Virus record (IMG/VR): IMGVR_UViG_3300022752_003639
Coordinates: 1 to 64,000 of that record
Reading direction: 5' to 3' (one strand)
DNA: 64,000 nucleotides
Origin: a virus
Shown: positions 6,380 to 15,230 of the stretch, piece by piece
Layout of the letters: every line of letters begins with the position of its first letter
Position numbering within the stretch: position 1 is the first letter of the stretch
Translations under genes and position numbers: made by a program
The notes under the pieces: generated by a model
Databases searched by the model: none
The model's input: only the letters and a program-made list of their open reading frames with translations
Told to the model about the DNA's origin: nothing

Positions 6380-7195
6380 TTAAACTGTATAAGCTCTAGG
6401 ATCATTTCTATCAATTATAAAATATTTCTTAACTAACCAACCGGAAAAATCAAACTCCCCTTTTTTCATAGCCTGATTATATTCGCTTGGATAAGCATGA
6501 TGATTATTATGTAATCCTTCACCTAGAGTATACCAATGTATCCATTTATTATTTTGACTTTTGTCAGAAGTTTCAAAATTTCTATATGAAATACTTGTTG
6601 GTACATGGCTTAAAGTGGTGACAAACACACCGCTTCCGAATATATACCAACCCAAAGGAGCAAATAATATAAAAATAGGAATATGCCAATCTATTAGTCC
6701 TAACACTAATGAAAATATAATCAGACAAGCCCATATCTTAAAATAATTATGATGTACAAATTTAATTGTAGGGTCTCGTATTAAATCCTTAGGTAATATT
6801 CTTACCTGTTTAATTTTATTAAACCATTCAAAAGGTTTAATTTCCCATAATCCTAAGCTTTCTTTTATACTATTTTTTGGACTATGAATATCAAGATCTT
6901 CATCACTATATCTATGGTGATGTCTATGACTAGTAGCATATAATATAGGACTTCCTGCACCAATCAACACACTTGCCCAAGTTAAAAAAACATGTTTCTT
7001 TTTAGTGGTAACAAATGATCTATGAGCGAAATATCTATGCATAGCTATATGATTAGCAGGAATCACTACAATTTTACTAATCAAAAATGCTAAAATAGTC
7101 CACAACCATTCACCACTAAAGAATGGATATATTAAACTAAACCCCCAAGAAAGCAAACCTAATGCCCAAATGGTTCTTAATTTGTATATGTTCAT
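6380..7195 (-). CDS. Membrane fatty acid desaturase 2
   Basis: HRYFAH, HRHHH, LHNNHH boxes. Confidence 0.92.
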   Translation of the reverse strand: MNIYKLRTIWALGLLSWGFSLIYPFFSGEWLWTILAFLISKIVVIPANHIAMHRYFAHRSFVTTKKKHVFLTWASVLIGAGSPILYATSHRHHHRYSDEDLDIHSPKNSIKESLGLWEIKPFEWFNKIKQVRILPKDLIRDPTIKFVHHNYFKIWACLIIFSLVLGLIDWHIPIFILFAPLGWYIFGSGVFVTTLSHVPTSISYRNFETSDKSQNNKWIHWYTLGEGLHNNHHAYPSEYNQAMKKGEFDFSGWLVKKYFIIDRNDPRAYTV

Positions 7196-7827
7196 ACACC
7201 GTATTTGCTTATAATTATATTAAAAATGCTTTCGTCGAAGAACCCAATCGTAAATGCTCTTCTATCGTTATTAATATTATGTACACTATGTATCAAATCT
7301 GTACGCATAATATTCCATCGGTGGCTTGGAAAAATTGTAGAATTTACCTTACTTAATACATTTAGGTCAAAACAATGAGACCATGGATCCCTAATTAGTT
7401 CTTTACCATTTTCCTGCCACCAAATAGTTTCAACGTTTGTTCCACCGGAGGTTAGCAAAAAACTAATACAAAATGGACCACGGGTTTTTCCGTCTGTATG
7501 AGGATGTAACTGGCAGATATTATTGCCATTTGCTTTTATACTTTGAAAACCTATAGTTAAAGTTAATCCTTCTAATTCAGGAATTAAATTATTTATAAAT
7601 TGTGTATACCTATCAGTTAGCGGCCATCTAGAATAAATTGCATCATCTACTTCTGTATTATCAAGTTGCTTTATTTTTTGTTGAGATAGCTTTTGTTTGA
7701 GAGATCCTGTTTTAGAATCTTCGATGATATCGATTATATCTTTTGGCAATTCTGGTAAATCTAAAATAGAGAATGTTTTCATTTTTTTTGCAAACAATAC
7801 TTTATAAAAAGACCTGGTAAGTCCCAT
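7192..7827 (-). CDS. Fe(II)/2-oxoglutarate dioxygenase-like protein
   Basis: HTD...HSV..R metal/2OG motif pattern. Confidence 0.65.
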   Translation of the reverse strand: MGLTRSFYKVLFAKKMKTFSILDLPELPKDIIDIIEDSKTGSLKQKLSQQKIKQLDNTEVDDAIYSRWPLTDRYTQFINNLIPELEGLTLTIGFQSIKANGNNICQLHPHTDGKTRGPFCISFLLTSGGTNVETIWWQENGKELIRDPWSHCFDLNVLSKVNSTIFPSHRWNIMRTDLIHSVHNINNDRRAFTIGFFDESIFNIIISKYGV

Positions 7828-8543
7828 TCAAATTTTTTAACTGCATAGTAAGGACTTTGGCTATTGGCATGATGATTATTATGCAGTCCACTTCCAAGCA
7901 TTAAGATATTTACTAAAGTATTATTCTTACTATTATCGTTTGTATCAAAATTCCTGTATCCCCATTTATGGCATACAATGTCTATCAATAAACTACTAGT
8001 ATGAAAAGTCCATACCGCACTTAAACTAAACAAAAATATAGCCAACTTTAAATCAATTAAAGCGGTGATGCTATATACAATTATAACAAATTCTAAATAG
8101 TGTCTATGTAAGAAATTATGAAATGGATCCTTGGCCAGGTCTGAAATTATTTTAGGAGAAAATTTAACCATAGGCCAATTTACCAACCAAACATCATACC
8201 ATTTATTATAGAGTGGACTTTGAGGATCTTTTCTTGTATCTGAATATCTATGATGTATTCTATGTGTTCCTACCCATCCATAACTACTTCCTAGAAAATT
8301 TAATGATCCTAATAATATCAAAATTATTTCTTTCCATCTTTGAGTATTAAAACTTCTATGGGCACATAATCTATGATAACCTATTTCGCCTCCAATCTTT
8401 CCAAATAAGATCCAACCTAGTATAGTTAATAATAAATCTTTATAATTCCAATCTATATAAAATAATAAAATTATTATAAGGTGATGGAAAACAATTAGTA
8501 TCTTAAATTGTATATCCATATTTGGTTTATAAAATTTTAACAT
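7779..8543 (-). CDS. Membrane fatty acid desaturase 3
   Basis: HRLCAH, HRIHH, LHNNHH boxes. Confidence 0.92.
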   Translation of the reverse strand: MLKFYKPNMDIQFKILIVFHHLIIILLFYIDWNYKDLLLTILGWILFGKIGGEIGYHRLCAHRSFNTQRWKEIILILLGSLNFLGSSYGWVGTHRIHHRYSDTRKDPQSPLYNKWYDVWLVNWPMVKFSPKIISDLAKDPFHNFLHRHYLEFVIIVYSITALIDLKLAIFLFSLSAVWTFHTSSLLIDIVCHKWGYRNFDTNDNSKNNTLVNILMLGSGLHNNHHANSQSPYYAVKKFEWDLPGLFIKYCLQKK

Positions 8544-9319
8544 GGAATAATAGGACCTTGGTATGCCAGGATAGCTTTTTTTATTACCTTTTCTAAAGTA
8601 GAATTATCTCTTACGTCATTATAAATTAAAATATCAATTCGTTCTTTATCACTATAATTTTTATAAGCATGTTGATGATAACCGTTTAAGTACCAAATTT
8701 TACCGCATGTAAAATTAGCAACAAAATATTTCGAATTATTTTTATAATACGATAATTCTTCAAAAAAATATCTATCGCTATGGACCTCTTTAGAAACAAT
8801 ATGCGCTACATTTTTATCAGCAATAATTGGTATATGAATTATACACTGTTCGGGTTTATTATATTTTTTTATTAATTCGTCATTTTGATGACTATGCCAA
8901 CCTAGAGCGTGTCCTGGCCCAGATTTTACAATTTTGACCAATAAAGGTTTATCTGTTATACTAAGAACCAAATCCATTAATAATGGAAAATTTTTGGTTA
9001 CTTCTGTAGGATACCATCTTTGATCTTCAACGGGCCATTCGTAAAAATCTTCTAACTCGTTATTATCTTTATTTTTCCATCTAGCAAAGTGTTCCCTTAC
9101 AATAGAAGAATTTCCTGACTTATAAATTGTTGTAAGAGCACATTGTTTATACGATTTGTGAATTTCCTCAAGGAATGGTGTCAATTGAAAATATGGCGGA
9201 TGATAATTATGCCAAGTTCTATTTTTTAAAACTTCAGATTTTATACTATTAATATCAAATTGAATGCCTAATTCCATAAACGGAATAAATCTAAGATTGT
9301 TTATTGTTTTCAACTTCAT
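8537..9319 (-). CDS. Asp/Asn beta-hydroxylase-like (cupin) oxygenase
   Basis: WHSH...IHIPII...HQHAYKN...RIDIL pattern as in AspH-type enzymes. Confidence 0.6.
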   Translation of the reverse strand: MKLKTINNLRFIPFMELGIQFDINSIKSEVLKNRTWHNYHPPYFQLTPFLEEIHKSYKQCALTTIYKSGNSSIVREHFARWKNKDNNELEDFYEWPVEDQRWYPTEVTKNFPLLMDLVLSITDKPLLVKIVKSGPGHALGWHSHQNDELIKKYNKPEQCIIHIPIIADKNVAHIVSKEVHSDRYFFEELSYYKNNSKYFVANFTCGKIWYLNGYHQHAYKNYSDKERIDILIYNDVRDNSTLEKVIKKAILAYQGPIIPC

Positions 9320-10070
9320 TTTTTATTAAAAGGTATTTAATTACTAATCCAGGTAAATCAAATTCTCCTGGTTTATGATTAAAGTATGGATTACCTGGTT
9401 GGGCATGATGATTATTATGTAGACCACTACCTCCTGTAACAATATTAACTAACAGATTATTTCTACTTCGGTCTAGAATGTCATAATTCCTATATCCGTA
9501 TTTGTGACAAACTATATCTATCAGATAAGCACCAACATGAAATTGTATCACAGATGGAATAATAATCACAAAAATTAAAAACTTATAATTAATTAATGCC
9601 AACAAAACAATTGTTGTATAACTTAATATAAAATAATTTTTGTGAATAAAGAGATGCCATTTATCTTTAATCAAATCGGAAATGTTTTTTGGACTTACAA
9701 TAAAAGGTTTCCAAACGACTAACCAAACTTTCCAAAGTTTATTAAAATATGGACTGTGAGGATCCTTATCAGTATCTGCTGTTTTATGATGAATTCTGTG
9801 AACTCCACACCAAGATAAACTACTTCCTACAAAATTTAAACTACCTAAAATTAGTAGGATTCGTTCCTTGGTCTTTGTAGTTTTAAAACTACGGTGGGCA
9901 AATAATCTGTGAAATCCTATTTCACCTCCGATTTTTCCTATTAAAATATATGATAAAAATGTGAAAAGGAAATAATACCATTCAACATTAACGATAAAAA
10001 AACTTGAAATAAAAAGTATGTGGGTGGTTAATAGTAATGAACGAATTTTAGTAAGAGTATTAACGTGCAT
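9291..10070 (-). CDS. Membrane fatty acid desaturase 4
   Basis: HRLFAH, HRIHH, LHNNHH boxes; closely similar to desaturase 3. Confidence 0.92.
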   Translation of the reverse strand: MHVNTLTKIRSLLLTTHILFISSFFIVNVEWYYFLFTFLSYILIGKIGGEIGFHRLFAHRSFKTTKTKERILLILGSLNFVGSSLSWCGVHRIHHKTADTDKDPHSPYFNKLWKVWLVVWKPFIVSPKNISDLIKDKWHLFIHKNYFILSYTTIVLLALINYKFLIFVIIIPSVIQFHVGAYLIDIVCHKYGYRNYDILDRSRNNLLVNIVTGGSGLHNNHHAQPGNPYFNHKPGEFDLPGLVIKYLLIKNEVENNKQS

Positions 10071-10440
10071 AATTGTTTATGAAATCCTGTTCGGAAATTT
10101 CAACAATTTCGTAAGTAAAAGTAAATTTATTTGAATACCCCTGTTCATTATGAAAAATAGTATTTTCATTGTAAAGAACATCTAGTCTATTTTTACATTC
10201 TAATGCGGTTTCTTGAGTATCATATATTCGTTCTGAAATAAGAATATTTCCATTTAACCAACGTTTGAATCCTATTTGTCGACCATCATTTACATATTCT
10301 TTAACTATTTCTTGATAAAGAGGTACATTACCTGGTTTAAAAACGTATGGTGTTAAATTAAAAAGTGTAAGTTGAGCATCCTCACTTAAAAGGTTAGTAT
10401 CATGAATTATTGTAAATGTTTTATAAACCCAAAAGCTCAT
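10060..10440 (-). CDS. Hypothetical protein (first gene of leftward operon)
   Basis: 126 aa ORF with AAGGA SD upstream. Confidence 0.7.
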   Translation of the reverse strand: MSFWVYKTFTIIHDTNLLSEDAQLTLFNLTPYVFKPGNVPLYQEIVKEYVNDGRQIGFKRWLNGNILISERIYDTQETALECKNRLDVLYNENTIFHNEQGYSNKFTFTYEIVEISEQDFINNYAR

Positions 10441-10450
10441 ATTTTGTCCT

Positions 10451-10479
10451 TATAAATAAAATTTATTATATATTTATTG
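10451..10479. promoter_or_regulatory. Back-to-back T4-late-like promoter motifs in divergent intergenic gap
   Basis: TATAAATA at 10451-10458 (+) and ATAAATA on the minus strand within 10471-10479. Confidence 0.45.
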
Positions 10480-10486
10480 ATAGACT

Positions 10487-11263
10487 ATGTTATATTCAAA
10501 CGTTTCGAGCATTAAAATATTACAATTAATCAGTACTGTGATTACATTGTACCTTATGACATTACAATTTAATCTTTATTGGTGGCTTTTATCTTTTTTT
10601 GTTTATTTTTTAACAGGTTGCTTAGGTATTACAATAACTTACCATCGTTATCTTTCTCATAAGGCATTCAAAATGCCTAAAGTTTTTGAATATCTTTTTA
10701 GTATGTTTGGTGCTCTTGGAGGAACAGGATCAACTATAGGTTGGTTAGCCGTGCATAATGTTCATCACAAATTTAGCGACAAAGATAAGGATCCGCATAG
10801 CCCACATTTACTCGGGCCCAAATTGTTGCTCACAAATTATAATTATAAATTTAATCCTCTAGATGCTAAATTATTACTTAGAGATAAATTTCATATTATA
10901 CTGCATCAGTATTATAATCTAATACTTTTAATTTGGGCATTCTTATTATTGGCTATTAATTACAAACTTTTTTTGTTTGCCTTTATTGTTCCTGTTTGTT
11001 TTCAAATTTGGGCAAGTAATATAAGCAATTACGCTAACCATATGTTTGGATACCAAAATTACGAAACAGGCGAAGGAAGTAAAAATACCTGGTGGGTAAG
11101 TGCAATTACTTGGGGTGAAGGATGGCATAATAATCATCATGCAGAACCCTGGCATTACAGTTTTCAAAGAAAATGGTGGGAAATAGATATTAGCGGATAT
11201 GTAATTTATTTAATTGTTATACTTACAGGTAATAAAAAGAGCCTATATAATTCAAAATATTAA
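10487..11263 (+). CDS. Membrane fatty acid desaturase 5
   Basis: HRYLSH, HNVHH, WHNNHH boxes; TWGEGWHNNHH and WWEID. Confidence 0.93.
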   Translation: MLYSNVSSIKILQLISTVITLYLMTLQFNLYWWLLSFFVYFLTGCLGITITYHRYLSHKAFKMPKVFEYLFSMFGALGGTGSTIGWLAVHNVHHKFSDKDKDPHSPHLLGPKLLLTNYNYKFNPLDAKLLLRDKFHIILHQYYNLILLIWAFLLLAINYKLFLFAFIVPVCFQIWASNISNYANHMFGYQNYETGEGSKNTWWVSAITWGEGWHNNHHAEPWHYSFQRKWWEIDISGYVIYLIVILTGNKKSLYNSKY

Positions 11264-11272
11264 AAAAATAGA

Positions 11273-11301
11273 TTGACATACTAGCAACAAACTAATATAA
11301 T
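11273..11301 (+). promoter_or_regulatory. Sigma70 promoter for tRNA cluster
   Basis: TTGACA-17 nt-TATAAT. Confidence 0.85.
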
Positions 11302-11309
11302 AAGTTTAT

Positions 11310-11404
11310 AGTAGACAGCACTGGTGTGCGGCGGAGACTTATAAACTCTGGAGACTGGTCAGATGGGCTGGAACGGTAGGGTTCGATTCCCTAGTCTACT
11401 ACCA
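11310..11404 (+). tRNA. Atypical tRNA, anticodon UAU, long variable arm, Sec-like D arm
   Basis: 7-bp acceptor AGTAGAC/GTCTACT + A + CCA; T arm TAGGG-TTCGATT-CCCTA; anticodon loop CT-TAT-AA; about 26-nt variable region. Confidence 0.75.
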
Positions 11405-11428: not shown

Positions 11429-11518
11429 GCCTGGGTGGTGAAATAGGTAGACACAAGGGACTTAAAATCCCTCGCTTCCGAAAGGGGCATGCCGGTTCGA
11501 GTCCGGCCCTAGGCACCA
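11429..11518 (+). tRNA. tRNA-Leu(UAA)
   Basis: GCCTGGG/CCTAGGC acceptor, AGGGA-CT-TAA-AA-TCCCT anticodon arm, long V arm, encoded CCA. Confidence 0.95.
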
Positions 11519-11526
11519 GTTTTACA

Positions 11527-11605
<79 letters not shown>

Positions 11606-12005: not shown

Positions 12006-12392
12006 ATGCCAACTCATAAATTACCACTAGAACTCGGATATACCGATGCTAGAGGAAAAATTTTACCTATAGTACATGACATGGCCAATGTACAAATGAT
12101 TTGGTCTGAAACAGGTGCCATTAGGGCCAACCATTATCATAAAACAGACACTCATGTTTGTTTCTTAGTCAGCGGAGATATGGATTATTATTGGCGTGAC
12201 CACGGTGAAACAAAAATTCATAAAGAACGTATAGTTGCAGGGGAGTTGTTTAAAACTGGACCATTAATCGACCATGAAATGGTATTTACAAGTCCATCTG
12301 TAATGGTTGTTATTAGTGAACATAAGCGTGATGCTGTAAGTTATGATGAAGACATTGTAAGAATTCGTCCGTTACATGAGCAATATGTTTAA
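12006..12392 (+). CDS. Cupin, nucleotide-sugar isomerase/epimerase-like
   Basis: RANHYH...H cupin motifs; sugar-gene context. Confidence 0.7.
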   Translation: MPTHKLPLELGYTDARGKILPIVHDMANVQMIWSETGAIRANHYHKTDTHVCFLVSGDMDYYWRDHGETKIHKERIVAGELFKTGPLIDHEMVFTSPSVMVVISEHKRDAVSYDEDIVRIRPLHEQYV

Positions 12393-13527
12393 GTACCAAT
12401 CTTGTAGATGTTGCGGCAATAATAATATTAATCCCTGGTTATCATTGCCATCTAGTCCTGTAGCTAATGCATTGTTTGAGATACCGAATTTCACAAAGTA
12501 TCCTTTAGATTTAAACTACTGTGAACAGTGTGGTCATTTGCAATTGGCAGCAGCACCTGATCCAGACAAGGTTTTTGCCAGTTACAGATATAAATCTGCG
12601 GTTTCTAAATCATTTAGAAATCATTTTACCGCTTTGGCAAATTATGCTTTTGAAAAATTCAATCTTTCTAATAATAGTAAAGTTTTAGAAATCGGCAGCA
12701 ATGATGGATTCTTGTTACTCCAATTTAAAGAAAAAGGATGCCAGGTCCAAGGAGTTGAGCCGAGTGCATATCTTGTAAATGAATACGTAGAAAATAACAT
12801 GCCATTGGTAAACGGGTTTTTTACCACTGCACTGGTCAATAAACGTGAATGGACTGCTAAATTTGATTTAGTTTGTGCTAATAATGTATTGGCGCATATT
12901 CCAGATACAGACGATGTAATAAAGGGCATATCACGATCGTTAAAGGATGGCGGAGTTCTAATGGTCGAATGCGGCCATCGTGATGCTATATTACAAGGAA
13001 CACATTTAGATAATGTTTATCATGAGCATATTGACTATTATAGCCCCCATTCATTTGGCACATTATTAGCAAAACATGGCCTGACTGTTGAAGAATTTGA
13101 GCTTATAAACTCACATGGTTTAAGTTTTAGATTAATTGCTAGAAAAGTAGATAAACCATCTATTACAACATTTGAACCTGTAAACATAGATATACAACGT
13201 ACGAAGGTAGAAAATTATATAGTTCAACGTAAGAATAACATGAACTCTATTATTTTAGGAAGACCTTTTGTAGCCTACGGTGCAGCGGCTAAAGCTGTAA
13301 CAAGTTTATACATGTTAGATTTAGTTTCAAATTCATTGTTTGGGGTGTACGATGACAATGAACTAAAACAAGGATTTTATTTCCCAGGAACAAACATAGT
13401 AATAGAAAGTCCTGAAAAAATGAATAAAGATTGTCTTGTAGTTGTTACTGCTTGGAATTTCTTTGAAGAAATTAAGAATAAGTTAATGTCTCGTGGACAC
13501 AAAGGAGAAATTGTCTGTATGCAGTAG
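12376..13527 (+). CDS. NDP-sugar C-methyltransferase (3-C-methyltransferase type)
   Basis: N-terminal CRCC...CEQC Zn site, EIGSNDG SAM motif, ANNVLAH, YHEH, YGAAAK, DDNELKQG. Confidence 0.9.
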   Translation: MSNMFKYQSCRCCGNNNINPWLSLPSSPVANALFEIPNFTKYPLDLNYCEQCGHLQLAAAPDPDKVFASYRYKSAVSKSFRNHFTALANYAFEKFNLSNNSKVLEIGSNDGFLLLQFKEKGCQVQGVEPSAYLVNEYVENNMPLVNGFFTTALVNKREWTAKFDLVCANNVLAHIPDTDDVIKGISRSLKDGGVLMVECGHRDAILQGTHLDNVYHEHIDYYSPHSFGTLLAKHGLTVEEFELINSHGLSFRLIARKVDKPSITTFEPVNIDIQRTKVENYIVQRKNNMNSIILGRPFVAYGAAAKAVTSLYMLDLVSNSLFGVYDDNELKQGFYFPGTNIVIESPEKMNKDCLVVVTAWNFFEEIKNKLMSRGHKGEIVCMQ

Positions 13528-14231
13528 TATACGGCACTGGCAAATGGGCCAGGCTATTAGGAAATAAGATTAAGAACCATGGACTTTTACCAGTTCATAT
13601 CGGATCTGATGACAGATTAGCGTTATTTTCAAGATCTCAATATCCCAAATTTACTCAGGGATATCCTTTGTTTATCCTTTCTAAAACTGAAAATCATTTA
13701 AATGATTTAAAAGATTGCCTACCACATTTACCTAAAGAAATTTATATAGAAAAAGGATTTGCTTCCGCCAACGAAAGGCGTAAGGCTAAAGAATTAGTTG
13801 GAGATATTCCGGTATTTTTTTTAAGTCAATACAGATTTAGTGAAATATTTACAGACTTTTTAGAACAACAAGAAACAATCTGTGGAATAAAATACAATTG
13901 GGCTGTAGAACAGCATTCAGCTCAAGAATGGATGTACCATATTGTTTCTATAGATAATTATTTGAAAAATAATAATTCTGATTTATATGTAGAACAGTTT
14001 GGACATTACGTTATAGATTCAATCAGCCAGGTCAACATTATCAAGAGCAAGATTAGATCTCTCATTATAGAAATAGAAACAACTACCGCAGATTATACCA
14101 TTGAACTAGGAAATACTAATTCTTTAAAAAGAGGTTCAACTGTTTTGACCGTAGTAAACAACGAAGATTGTCTCGGTGAACAAATTTCGCATATAATAAA
14201 TGATAAAAAAGAAAAGTTAGAAAGGTTATAA
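13515..14231 (+). CDS. Rossmann-fold oxidoreductase-like protein; start extended to CTG
   Basis: Frame open upstream of the track TTG (13668) to CTG 13515 with AAGGAG SD; gives YAVVYGTGKWA (GxGxxA). Confidence 0.6.
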   Translation: MYAVVYGTGKWARLLGNKIKNHGLLPVHIGSDDRLALFSRSQYPKFTQGYPLFILSKTENHLNDLKDCLPHLPKEIYIEKGFASANERRKAKELVGDIPVFFLSQYRFSEIFTDFLEQQETICGIKYNWAVEQHSAQEWMYHIVSIDNYLKNNNSDLYVEQFGHYVIDSISQVNIIKSKIRSLIIEIETTTADYTIELGNTNSLKRGSTVLTVVNNEDCLGEQISHIINDKKEKLERL

Positions 14232-15230
14232 ATGAAAATATTAATTTTAGGGTCTGATGGGTTTATAGGCTATCATTTAACTGATTCAATCCTACAAGAT
14301 GAAAAATTTGCAGAATATACAATTACAGGAATAGATGCCAATAAACTGCGCACAGACATGCTTCCGTCGTCTAACAGGTTCCAGTTTCATAAAGCTAATA
14401 TTTTACAGTCTAGACAATACATAGATTCTTTAATACAAGATACAGACATTGTATTACCGCTAGTAGCCATTGCTACACCAAAAATATATGTCGAACGTCC
14501 AATGGATGTATTTGAACTAGATTTTGAAGAAAATTTAAGAATATTGAAACTATGTCACAAACTAAACAAACGTGTAATTTTTCCTAGCACCAGCGAAGTA
14601 TATGGTAAAGGAATTGCACCATTTGACGAAAATACCACAGATTTAACCTATGGCCCAATTAAATATAGCCGATGGATTTATGCCTGTAGTAAACAGCTAT
14701 TGGACAGGGTGGTATTTGCCATGCATCAAAAGTCACCATTTCGTTTTACTTTGTTCAGGCCTTTTAATTGGGTAGGCCCATACCTGGACAGTTTAGAGTC
14801 AAGCTCAGAAGGATCTAGTAGACTAATTACTCAACTCATAAACGACGCTCAAATTAAAGGAGAAGTTACTTTAGTAGATGGAGGCAATCAGAAACGGTGT
14901 TTTACTGATGTAAGAGACGGAGTTTCAGCTCTAAAGGCTATGATATTAAATGAAGATATAAGTAACCAAAAAATTTACAATGTTGGTAATCCTTGGAACA
15001 ATTTCAGTGTGAGAGAAGTGGCAATGATGTTAATTGAAAAAATGAAGGAACACAAGTTAGTAACTGACGTACAGATTAAAGTAAAAAGCAGTGGAGAATT
15101 TTACGGTGCTGGGTATGAAGATGTTAGTAATAGAGTACCTAGTATAAACAACATTGGTAATGATTTGAACTGGACACCACAGTATACATTTGAGCAAAGT
15201 TTACATAATATTTTATCATCGCTTAAATAA
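14232..15230 (+). CDS. ArnA decarboxylase-domain-like UDP-glucuronate oxidase/decarboxylase (standalone)
   Basis: GSDGFIG, PLVAIATP, VFELDFEENL, FPSTSEVYG, RWIYACSKQLLDRV, FRPFNW match the ArnA C-terminal domain. Confidence 0.9.
   Translation: MKILILGSDGFIGYHLTDSILQDEKFAEYTITGIDANKLRTDMLPSSNRFQFHKANILQSRQYIDSLIQDTDIVLPLVAIATPKIYVERPMDVFELDFEENLRILKLCHKLNKRVIFPSTSEVYGKGIAPFDENTTDLTYGPIKYSRWIYACSKQLLDRVVFAMHQKSPFRFTLFRPFNWVGPYLDSLESSSEGSSRLITQLINDAQIKGEVTLVDGGNQKRCFTDVRDGVSALKAMILNEDISNQKIYNVGNPWNNFSVREVAMMLIEKMKEHKLVTDVQIKVKSSGEFYGAGYEDVSNRVPSINNIGNDLNWTPQYTFEQSLHNILSSLK

Follow-up and report, generated by a model that had tools for sequence, protein, structure and literature searches.

The stretch of DNA analysed here, referred to as the window, is the first 64 kb of an IMG/VR virus record of 138,457 bp with a G+C content of 35% and an estimated completeness of 35%. 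The record has a coding density of 93% in the standard code and encodes a family B DNA polymerase, a baseplate hub with lysozyme, and T4-like myovirus tail-fibre genes. The DNA polymerase shares 43–50% identity with those of the jumbo phages Atu_ph07, Phosso, 121Q, and RaK2, and 79–87% identity with those of hundreds of uncultured contigs. DNA of the phage was detected, in public sequencing runs, in freshwater metagenomes from several studies. Outside the window, the structural-gene region of the record includes one open reading frame of 4,652 codons (109430–123388, minus strand).

An operon of three tRNA genes lies in the window behind a sigma-70-type promoter. The elements of the operon and the inner arms of its first tRNA, hereafter the five-arm tRNA, are as follows.

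11273–11301, plus strand: sigma-70-type promoter, TTGACA-17 nt-TATAAT (12/12 consensus matches)
11310–11404, plus strand: five-arm tRNA(UAU), 95 nt, 7/5 acceptor/T branch (sequence, fold, covariation)
11318–11329, plus strand: D arm, 4-bp stem GCAC/GUGC with a UGGU tetraloop (sequence, fold; 2/4 pairs covary)
11332–11350, plus strand: decoding arm, stem CGGAG/CUCUG (A29-U41), loop CUUAUAA (5/6 stem pairs covary)
11355–11371, plus strand: second anticodon-like arm, 5–6-bp stem, loop C-A-GAU-G-G (comparative scans; outer pair covaries)
11377–11393, plus strand: T arm, 5-bp stem UAGGG/CCCUA, loop UUCGAUU (sequence; pair 49-65 covaries)
11429–11518, plus strand: tRNA-Leu(UAA), canonical class II (ARAGORN; Rfam, 56.4 bits)
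11527–11605, plus strand: CAU-anticodon tRNA, bacterial tRNA-Ile2-like, with C4-G69 and C5-G68 (ARAGORN, Rfam)

The sequence-only reading of this DNA had reported a perfect promoter ahead of the five-arm tRNA, and the full consensus is indeed present there, with the −10 hexamer ending 8 nt upstream of tRNA position 1. A −10 hexamer 7–8 nt before position 1 was seen in several phages (window 11296–11310; L127, L360, and L086), and because of this spacing the primary transcript would be almost without a 5′ leader. RNA-library contigs spanning 11295–11404 differ from the window in 3–8 letters and hence come from relatives, and the flanking genes had no cover. Since the contigs are those of relatives, they cannot prove, and do not disprove, transcription of the five-arm tRNA.

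The best E. coli match of the CAU tRNA is a gene annotated as tRNA-Ile (79.5% identity over 97% of the length), present in about one copy per genome, and for this reason the CAU tRNA looks like the lysidine-dependent tRNA-Ile2. In bacteria, tRNA-Ile2 (CAU) is the lysidine-dependent reader of AUA. The five-arm tRNA is therefore at least partly redundant, as the same operon already contains a tRNA-Ile2(CAU)-like gene. In L355 and L356, both close relatives, such a gene lies immediately upstream of the five-arm tRNA. Searches of the 138-kb record, which represents only about 35% of the genome, gave no match for TilS (PF01171) or for a class I synthetase (PF00133).

On one side, the operon is flanked by two genes of the fatty-acid-desaturase family (9291–10070, minus strand, and 10487–11263, plus strand), and on the other side by sugar/polysaccharide-modifying genes, including a C-methyltransferase and an NAD-dependent epimerase/dehydratase. 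These blocks, at 7192–11263 and 12006–15230 of the window, are an unusual auxiliary cargo for a phage. When synteny was followed through the upstream desaturase, the closest relative (L089, 79% identity) had no tRNA cluster at that site.

Fold and conservation of the five-arm tRNA

The acceptor stem, AGUAGAC/GUCUACU, has 7 bp including A1-U72 and A4-U69, and is followed by A73 at 11401 and an encoded CCA at 11402–11404. A single linker nucleotide, A8, precedes the D arm and GG follows it. The anticodon UAU occupies 11340–11342 within the 9-nt loop ACUUAUAAA, which consists of A31.A39 around CUUAUAA. Between the anticodon stem and the T stem, 26 nt hold a 6-bp hairpin with three G.U pairs; its loop CAGAUGG lies at 11360–11366, with GAU at 11362–11364, and is followed by the 5-nt linker AACGG. 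This five-helix cloverleaf is the minimum free energy (MFE) structure (RNAfold).

Most of the anatomy given in the sequence-only reading agrees with both the sequence and the MFE fold, namely the 7/5 branch, A73, CCA, A8, the 4-bp D stem with UGGU, and the A.A-closed CU-UAU-AA loop; A4-U69 and A29-U41 are likewise present in the acceptor and anticodon stems. For the extra region, the 26 nt and the G.U-rich stem were described correctly, whereas the region had been taken as a variable one and the GAU-centred loop was overlooked.

The standard tRNA finders did not call the five-arm tRNA: neither ARAGORN at default settings, which the earlier reading had named as a check, nor Rfam at its gathering scores detected it. 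The window copy has no U8 or A14, a small D loop, and the A.A at 31.39. At relaxed thresholds, the best Rfam model was tRNA-Sec (RF01852), whose 33.1 bits fall short of its gathering score of 47. In the description of the molecule as a class II, tRNA-Sec-like body, the Sec-likeness is therefore no more than a resemblance, and the linker after the extra arm is not of class II type.

Three other ways of folding or reading the sequence were rejected. With lowered thresholds, ARAGORN returned a "tRNA-Tyr(AUA)", obtained through a one-base shift of the loop or an invented 2-nt intron, whereas the register conserved among relatives is U33-UAU-A37. A 6-bp Sec-like D stem, taken from the Rfam alignment, would remove C7 from the fully covarying acceptor stem. 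In an 8/4 acceptor/T fold, the eighth acceptor pair would be A8.A65, whereas positions 49 and 65 covary as a T-stem pair; the branch is therefore 7/5, not 8/4.

The subfamily of the window copy was defined by the arm core GGUCAGAUGGGCUG, which was found in 62 viral contigs with 34 distinct sequences; these sequences were aligned. The same pattern had only two matches in 185,579 prokaryote species genomes, both of which were chance matches that do not fold as tRNAs. In the alignment, the five-helix structure was paired in 98.2% of the cells. Sixteen of the 28 pairs were changed on both sides, and none of 500 shuffles of the alignment was as good, whereas sliding the partners along the alignment lowered pairing to 30–46%. 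All five stems covary. For pair 49-65 of the T stem, AU (14), UA (11), CG (8), and GC (1) were observed, and the outer pair of the second arm occurs as C-G, G-C, or U-A. In all 34 relatives, U33, UAU, A37, A73, and CCA are invariant. Positions 31 and 39 are unpaired in 16 of the 34 sequences, and the A.A of the window copy is therefore a tolerated trait of the family. Position 1 differs: the window copy has A1-U72, whereas 33 of the 34 relatives have G1.U72.

The folding energy of the single sequence is unexceptional for its composition (z = −0.69), and the evidence that the fold exceeds chance is, on the aligned sequences, comparative rather than energetic. These comparisons show that the five-arm fold is under selection. 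The window element is a real, conserved tRNA. Its family of five-arm tRNA-Ile(UAU) genes is carried mostly by phages and occurs on about 100 contigs, and most of the relatives are placed within ordinary phage tRNA arrays.

An exact 30-mer of the T arm and acceptor had no match among the viral contigs; in blastn, 50,697 records of cultured phages gave hits to the Leu and CAU tRNAs only and never to the five-arm tRNA; and BLAST of the tRNA cluster against 20 related large records recovered only Leu-like and Met-like tRNAs. In two contigs, the subfamily tRNA is present as its 5′ part only and is followed by unrelated AT-rich sequence, with identity extending up to the start of the anticodon loop in L638 and up to the start of the anticodon stem in L685. 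These partial copies may be scars of recombination or integration.

The GAU arm and its association with UAU

GAU is the anticodon of the major bacterial tRNA-Ile. The association of the GAU loop with the UAU anticodon was examined by three scans. In the first scan, all IMG/VR contigs were searched for CTTATAA, 30–50 nt, and GGTTCGATTCC, leaving the extra arm unconstrained. At least 119 loci were found, at least 64 of which had a perfect 7-bp acceptor stem, a 5-bp T stem, and A73, nearly all of these with CCA. A hairpin loop of the form N-(A/U)-GAU-N-N was present in the "variable" region of 48–49 of the 52 distinct long cloverleaves, in the variants CAGAUUA, UAGAUAA, CAGAUGG, and CUGAUAA.

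In the reverse scan of the viral contigs, only CAGATTA and the T loop were fixed, and 61 distinct long cloverleaves were obtained. The first inner arm carried UAU in 54 of these by script, and in about 59 after the mis-parsed ones had been checked by eye. Positions 32, 37, and 38 vary, giving the loops CUUAUAA, UUUAUAA, CUUAUAC/U, and CCUAUAA. In the third scan, only the D arm of the subfamily was fixed and neither triplet was constrained; among 55 foldable distinct sequences, UAU was found in 54 (CAU in the other one) and GAU in 52 (GAC in the other three).

As a control, the long tRNAs called by ARAGORN at the same loci were inspected. The GAU loop was present in 94 of 95 Ile(UAU) tRNAs, compared with none of about 330 Leu, Ser, and Tyr tRNAs, and the long-armed Asn, Thr, Lys, and Met tRNAs of phages have loops unrelated to it. 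The GAU loop is thus tied to UAU and absent from other long-armed tRNAs. The spacing of the extra arm is also distinct: the linker following it has 5 nt in 65 of 94 UAU tRNAs, compared with a mode of 1 nt in at least 240 Leu and Ser tRNAs and 3 nt in Tyr tRNAs of the same loci. The window element possesses both the 7-nt GAU loop (CAGAUGG) and a linker of about 5 nt (AACGG).

These results suggest that selection keeps both triplets, UAU and GAU. In the second arm, only GAU and the preceding A/U are conserved, and not the full set of loop nucleotides used by IleRS. The extra arm differs from a class II variable arm in that the 3′ half of the molecule has the appearance of an anticodon arm joined through a class I variable loop to a T arm, because the linker has 5 nt rather than the 1 nt of Ser and Leu tRNAs. 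On this view, the extra hairpin is the UAU arm, placed between the D arm and the GAU arm.

The first and second scans, when run over the 185,579 prokaryote genomes, returned mostly chance matches. Among the real long cloverleaves, GAU was paired with UAU in 9 of about 10 found with the CAGATTA pattern (Ruegeria and Pyrinomonadaceae among others) and in 4 of 7 found with the CTTATAA pattern. Five-arm tRNA(UAU) genes with a CAGAUUA loop occur on chromosomal contigs of cultured strains of Ruegeria spp. (L372, L419, and L431) and of Acidobacteria MAGs of the Pyrinomonadaceae (L378, L388, L427, and L475). The Ruegeria copies share the tetraloop type of D arm with the window element.

Codon use and the amino acid meaning of AUA

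AUA accounts for 41% of the Ile codons of the phage (30 per 1000 codons) and UUA for 48% of its Leu codons; the three tRNAs of the operon read exactly AUA and UUA. When the DNA polymerase was aligned with 80 relatives, the 20 AUA columns contained I in 68%, V in 22%, M in 4%, and L in 1.8% of cases. This profile matches that of the AUU/AUC columns, whereas the Leu codons align with L in 82–97%. In 51 orthologue pairs shared with a 331-kb relative (G007), 367 AUA codons align with I in 48%, V in 23%, and L in 12%, compared with I in 62%, V in 15%, and L in 9% for AUU in the same orthologues, and with L in 67–74% for the Leu codons. As the AUA columns align like AUU and unlike the Leu codons, selection treats AUA as Ile; minor misincorporation would be compatible with these alignments.

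In G007, which is 93% complete, the five-arm tRNA(UAU) was found neither by the pattern scan nor by ARAGORN, and AUA makes up 13% of the Ile codons. The median AUA share of Ile codons is likewise 13% in relatives identified by the polymerase locus, compared with 23% at loci with the subfamily tRNA, at similar G+C, and reaches 37–46% in the closest carriers of the five-arm tRNA. AUA use thus seems tied to carriage of the five-arm tRNA, although the contrasts are phylogenetically non-independent and suggestive only.

Four traits are particular to this window: a Sec-like D arm that eludes the standard tRNA finders, a near-leaderless start at a consensus promoter, an operon shared with tRNA-Ile2(CAU) and tRNA-Leu(UAA), and a very high genomic use of AUA.

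Two further tRNA genes were observed in G007. In an odd tRNA-like gene of 101 nt (L086:1350–1450, G007:5418–5518), named "Pro GGG" by ARAGORN, the extra arm is long and the anticodon arm pairs poorly, and the gene gives no match to the Rfam tRNA model; it starts 7 nt downstream of a TTGATC-17-TATAAT promoter and is followed by a tRNA-Thr. A tRNA with the anticodon CUA (L627:9801–9875, G007:329801–329875) is a would-be amber suppressor, and TAG may be recoded in part of that phage.

Relation to known tRNA groups and possible role of the GAU arm

The closest published group to the window element is allo-tRNA(UAU) (Mukai et al., 2017, NAR 45:2776, PMC5389517). Both are near-hits of the tRNA-Sec covariance model, and in both a D tetraloop and a long extra arm go together with UAU as the anticodon. 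The window element combines the long extra arm with a tRNA-Sec-like tetraloop D stem, though the stem has only 4 bp. The paper mentions "possible five-stem-junction structures" and reports such genes from phages and soil bacteria, and its main text, so far as consulted, contains no mention of a GAU loop. Allo-tRNAs are described there as having an 8/4 or 9/3 branch and mostly G73 or U73, whereas the window element has A73. Their branch was not found here either: the sequence-only reading had pointed to the allo-tRNA sets for comparison, and covariation supports 7/5 and rejects 8/4, with 49-65 covarying as a T-stem pair. A Ser identity or a role outside translation has been proposed for allo-tRNA(UAU), and when six such genes were given a CUA anticodon, no suppression with serine was seen in E. 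coli and two of the six were toxic (PMC5389517). Such a serine-suppression assay would not detect insertion of Ile.

The class I tRNA-Ile(UAU) of Mycoplasma mobile also combines UAU with A37 and reads AUA without lysidine (Taniguchi et al., 2013, PMC3575796). Both tRNAs face the same problem, in that an ordinary IleRS is poor with UAU; in M. mobile, it is solved in the enzyme (Arg865) and the ribosome, with an ordinary four-arm class I tRNA (PMC3575796), whereas the window element carries an extra GAU hairpin on the tRNA itself and is phage-borne. U33, UAU, A37, and A73, as expected of a TilS-independent tRNA-Ile(UAU), are all present in the window element, and of the three options offered by the sequence-only reading, a TilS-independent AUA reader is the best supported.

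For the nematode nev-tRNA-Ile(UAU), the likeness lies in the UAU anticodon and the long extra arm (Hamashima et al., 2012, PMC3333845). The body of nev-tRNAs is truly class II, of the Leu type, and in vitro they are reported to accept Leu, whereas the window element has arm flanks of class I type, the GAU loop, and codon evidence for Ile. Bacterial tRNA-Sec (RF01852) resembles it in the short D loop, the long extra arm, and a possible 6-bp anticodon stem, and differs in its 8/5 branch (13 bp), UCA, and G73. Identity with tRNA-Sec was rejected on the score of 33.1 against 47 bits, the 7/5 branch, UAU, and A73. Membership in class II tRNA-Leu or tRNA-Ser, in which the variable arm stands 0–2 nt from the T stem, is contradicted by the 5-nt linker and the anticodon UAU, and also by codon meaning, with AUA aligning with I and V and with L in only 1.8–12%. 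To the extent of the literature searched, no description was found of a second anticodon, an anticodon mimic, a class II tRNA-Ile, or a GAU-bearing second arm.

In bacteria, the reading of AUA normally depends on a CAU tRNA modified with lysidine, since UAU is rejected by IleRS and can also misread AUG. The kcat/Km of E. coli IleRS is 360-fold higher with LAU than with UAU (PMC3575796). On E. coli ribosomes, AUG is misread by UAU anticodons that lack modification (PMC3575796), which counts against reading the window element as an Ile decoder. Nevertheless, the comparisons above make it probable that the window element is a functional phage tRNA, a decoder of AUA, and, by prediction, an acceptor of Ile. 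The operon of three tRNAs would supply decoders for two A-ending codons overused by an AT-rich jumbo phage. In the family, a normal decoding loop, Y-U-UAU-A-N, stands on the first inner arm and would read AUA, and the second arm is a hairpin of 5 bp and 7 nt, N-(A/U)-GAU-N-N, followed by a class-I-sized variable loop of 5 nt. The reading is assigned to the UAU loop because A at "position 33" and a variable "position 37" make the GAU loop unfit for decoding. A73 is part of the Ile identity set of E. coli.

It is possible, though somewhat doubtful, that the GAU arm serves as a handle for the host IleRS. The hairpin would mimic the loop that presents the anticodon in tRNA-Ile(GAU) and would thereby allow charging by an ordinary bacterial IleRS, poor with UAU, either through binding of the second arm or after the two arms have swapped places at the five-way junction. 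In the normal L-shape, the loop of a variable arm is far from the site at which IleRS holds the anticodon, and the handle would therefore need unusual docking or an arm swap. The C29-G41 element of E. coli is missing from the stem of the GAU arm, where A mostly occupies "position 33"; both points speak against a handle. That the charging triplet (GAU, second arm) is physically separate from the codon-reading triplet (UAU, first arm) is offered still more tentatively.

An Ile-accepting AUA decoder in which the GAU hairpin has a job other than recognition by IleRS is about as plausible as the handle. The candidate jobs are recruitment of an enzyme modifying U34 or A37, stabilisation of a core that lacks the U8-A14 contacts, and protection from nucleases; alternatively, the hairpin may be a relic of an anticodon-arm duplication. 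The translational core of this explanation is backed by the same evidence from codons, covariation, and usage, and it gains from the geometric objection to IleRS reaching the loop of the variable arm and from conservation that is limited to GAU and the preceding A/U. However, a relic or a structural hairpin would not keep the exact Ile anticodon in independent samples (52/55 and about 48/52) while its stem covaries, and the long-armed phage Asn, Thr, Lys, and Met tRNAs do not share such a loop.

A tRNA-like RNA with no part in translation, which would either have a regulatory role or serve as a decoy or sponge that occupies anticodon nucleases or toxins of the host, seems unlikely, and the decoy idea in particular fits the data less well. 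The rejection of the window copy by the standard tRNA finders, its A.A mismatch and atypical core, and the presence of a tRNA-Ile2(CAU)-like gene in the operon would be expected of such an RNA, whereas the conservation of U33, UAU, A37, A73, CCA, the 7/5 stems, and the T loop is that of working tRNAs, relatives stand where the AUA decoder would be expected in ordinary phage tRNA arrays, and the carriers use AUA heavily. We know of no anticodon nuclease aimed at tRNA-Ile, which also weakens the decoy. The allo-tRNA(UAU) genes were inactive in the serine-suppression assay and linked to toxin-antitoxin loci (PMC5389517), in agreement with a role outside translation.

Missense decoding, in which LeuRS or SerRS charges the tRNA through the long arm and A73 and AUA is read partly as Leu or Ser, had been put forward in the sequence-only reading and is highly improbable. 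The long extra arm and A73 are present, and the nematode nev-tRNA-Ile(UAU), reported to be charged with Leu in vitro, provides a precedent (PMC3333845). However, the AUA sites behave as Ile, with L at only 1.8–12%, and with AUA at 41% of the Ile codons the proteome-wide damage would be large. The flanks of the arm (4 nt and 5 nt) are unlike those of Leu and Ser arms, the tetraloop D arm lacks the usual core elements of tRNA-Leu, and G73, which favours SerRS, is absent. The proposal is unsupported because the AUA columns, the linker of the arm, and the conserved GAU loop, which none of the approximately 330 Leu, Ser, and Tyr tRNAs carries, all disagree with Leu or Ser.

For the predicted Ile-accepting AUA decoder, several consequences would follow. 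A widespread phage AUA reader with a plain UAU and an Ile anticodon on a spare arm suggests a third, tRNA-built solution to the reading of AUA. If the GAU arm recruits IleRS, the inactivity of allo-tRNA(UAU) genes in serine assays would be explained, and a natural uncoupling of tRNA identity from decoding would be at hand that could be useful for the engineering of orthogonal tRNAs. As the standard tRNA finders miss the subfamily, phage tRNA counts and analyses of codon adaptation underestimate AUA decoders.

Variants at either triplet were also observed. Three members of the subfamily (L660:3734–3829, plus strand; L665:6597–6691, minus strand; L671:752–847, minus strand) keep UAU and have GAC, a Val anticodon, in the loop of the second arm; each has tRNA-His on one side and tRNA-Trp on the other, in arrays that reach 25 tRNAs, and ARAGORN did not call them. 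If the two triplets do have separate functions, these GAC variants would be natural identity switches towards valine and a possible natural test. In one further member (L648:3416–3510, plus strand), the decoding loop has CAU instead of UAU and the GAU arm is kept, and a 79-nt CAU tRNA comes after it, as in the operon of the window.
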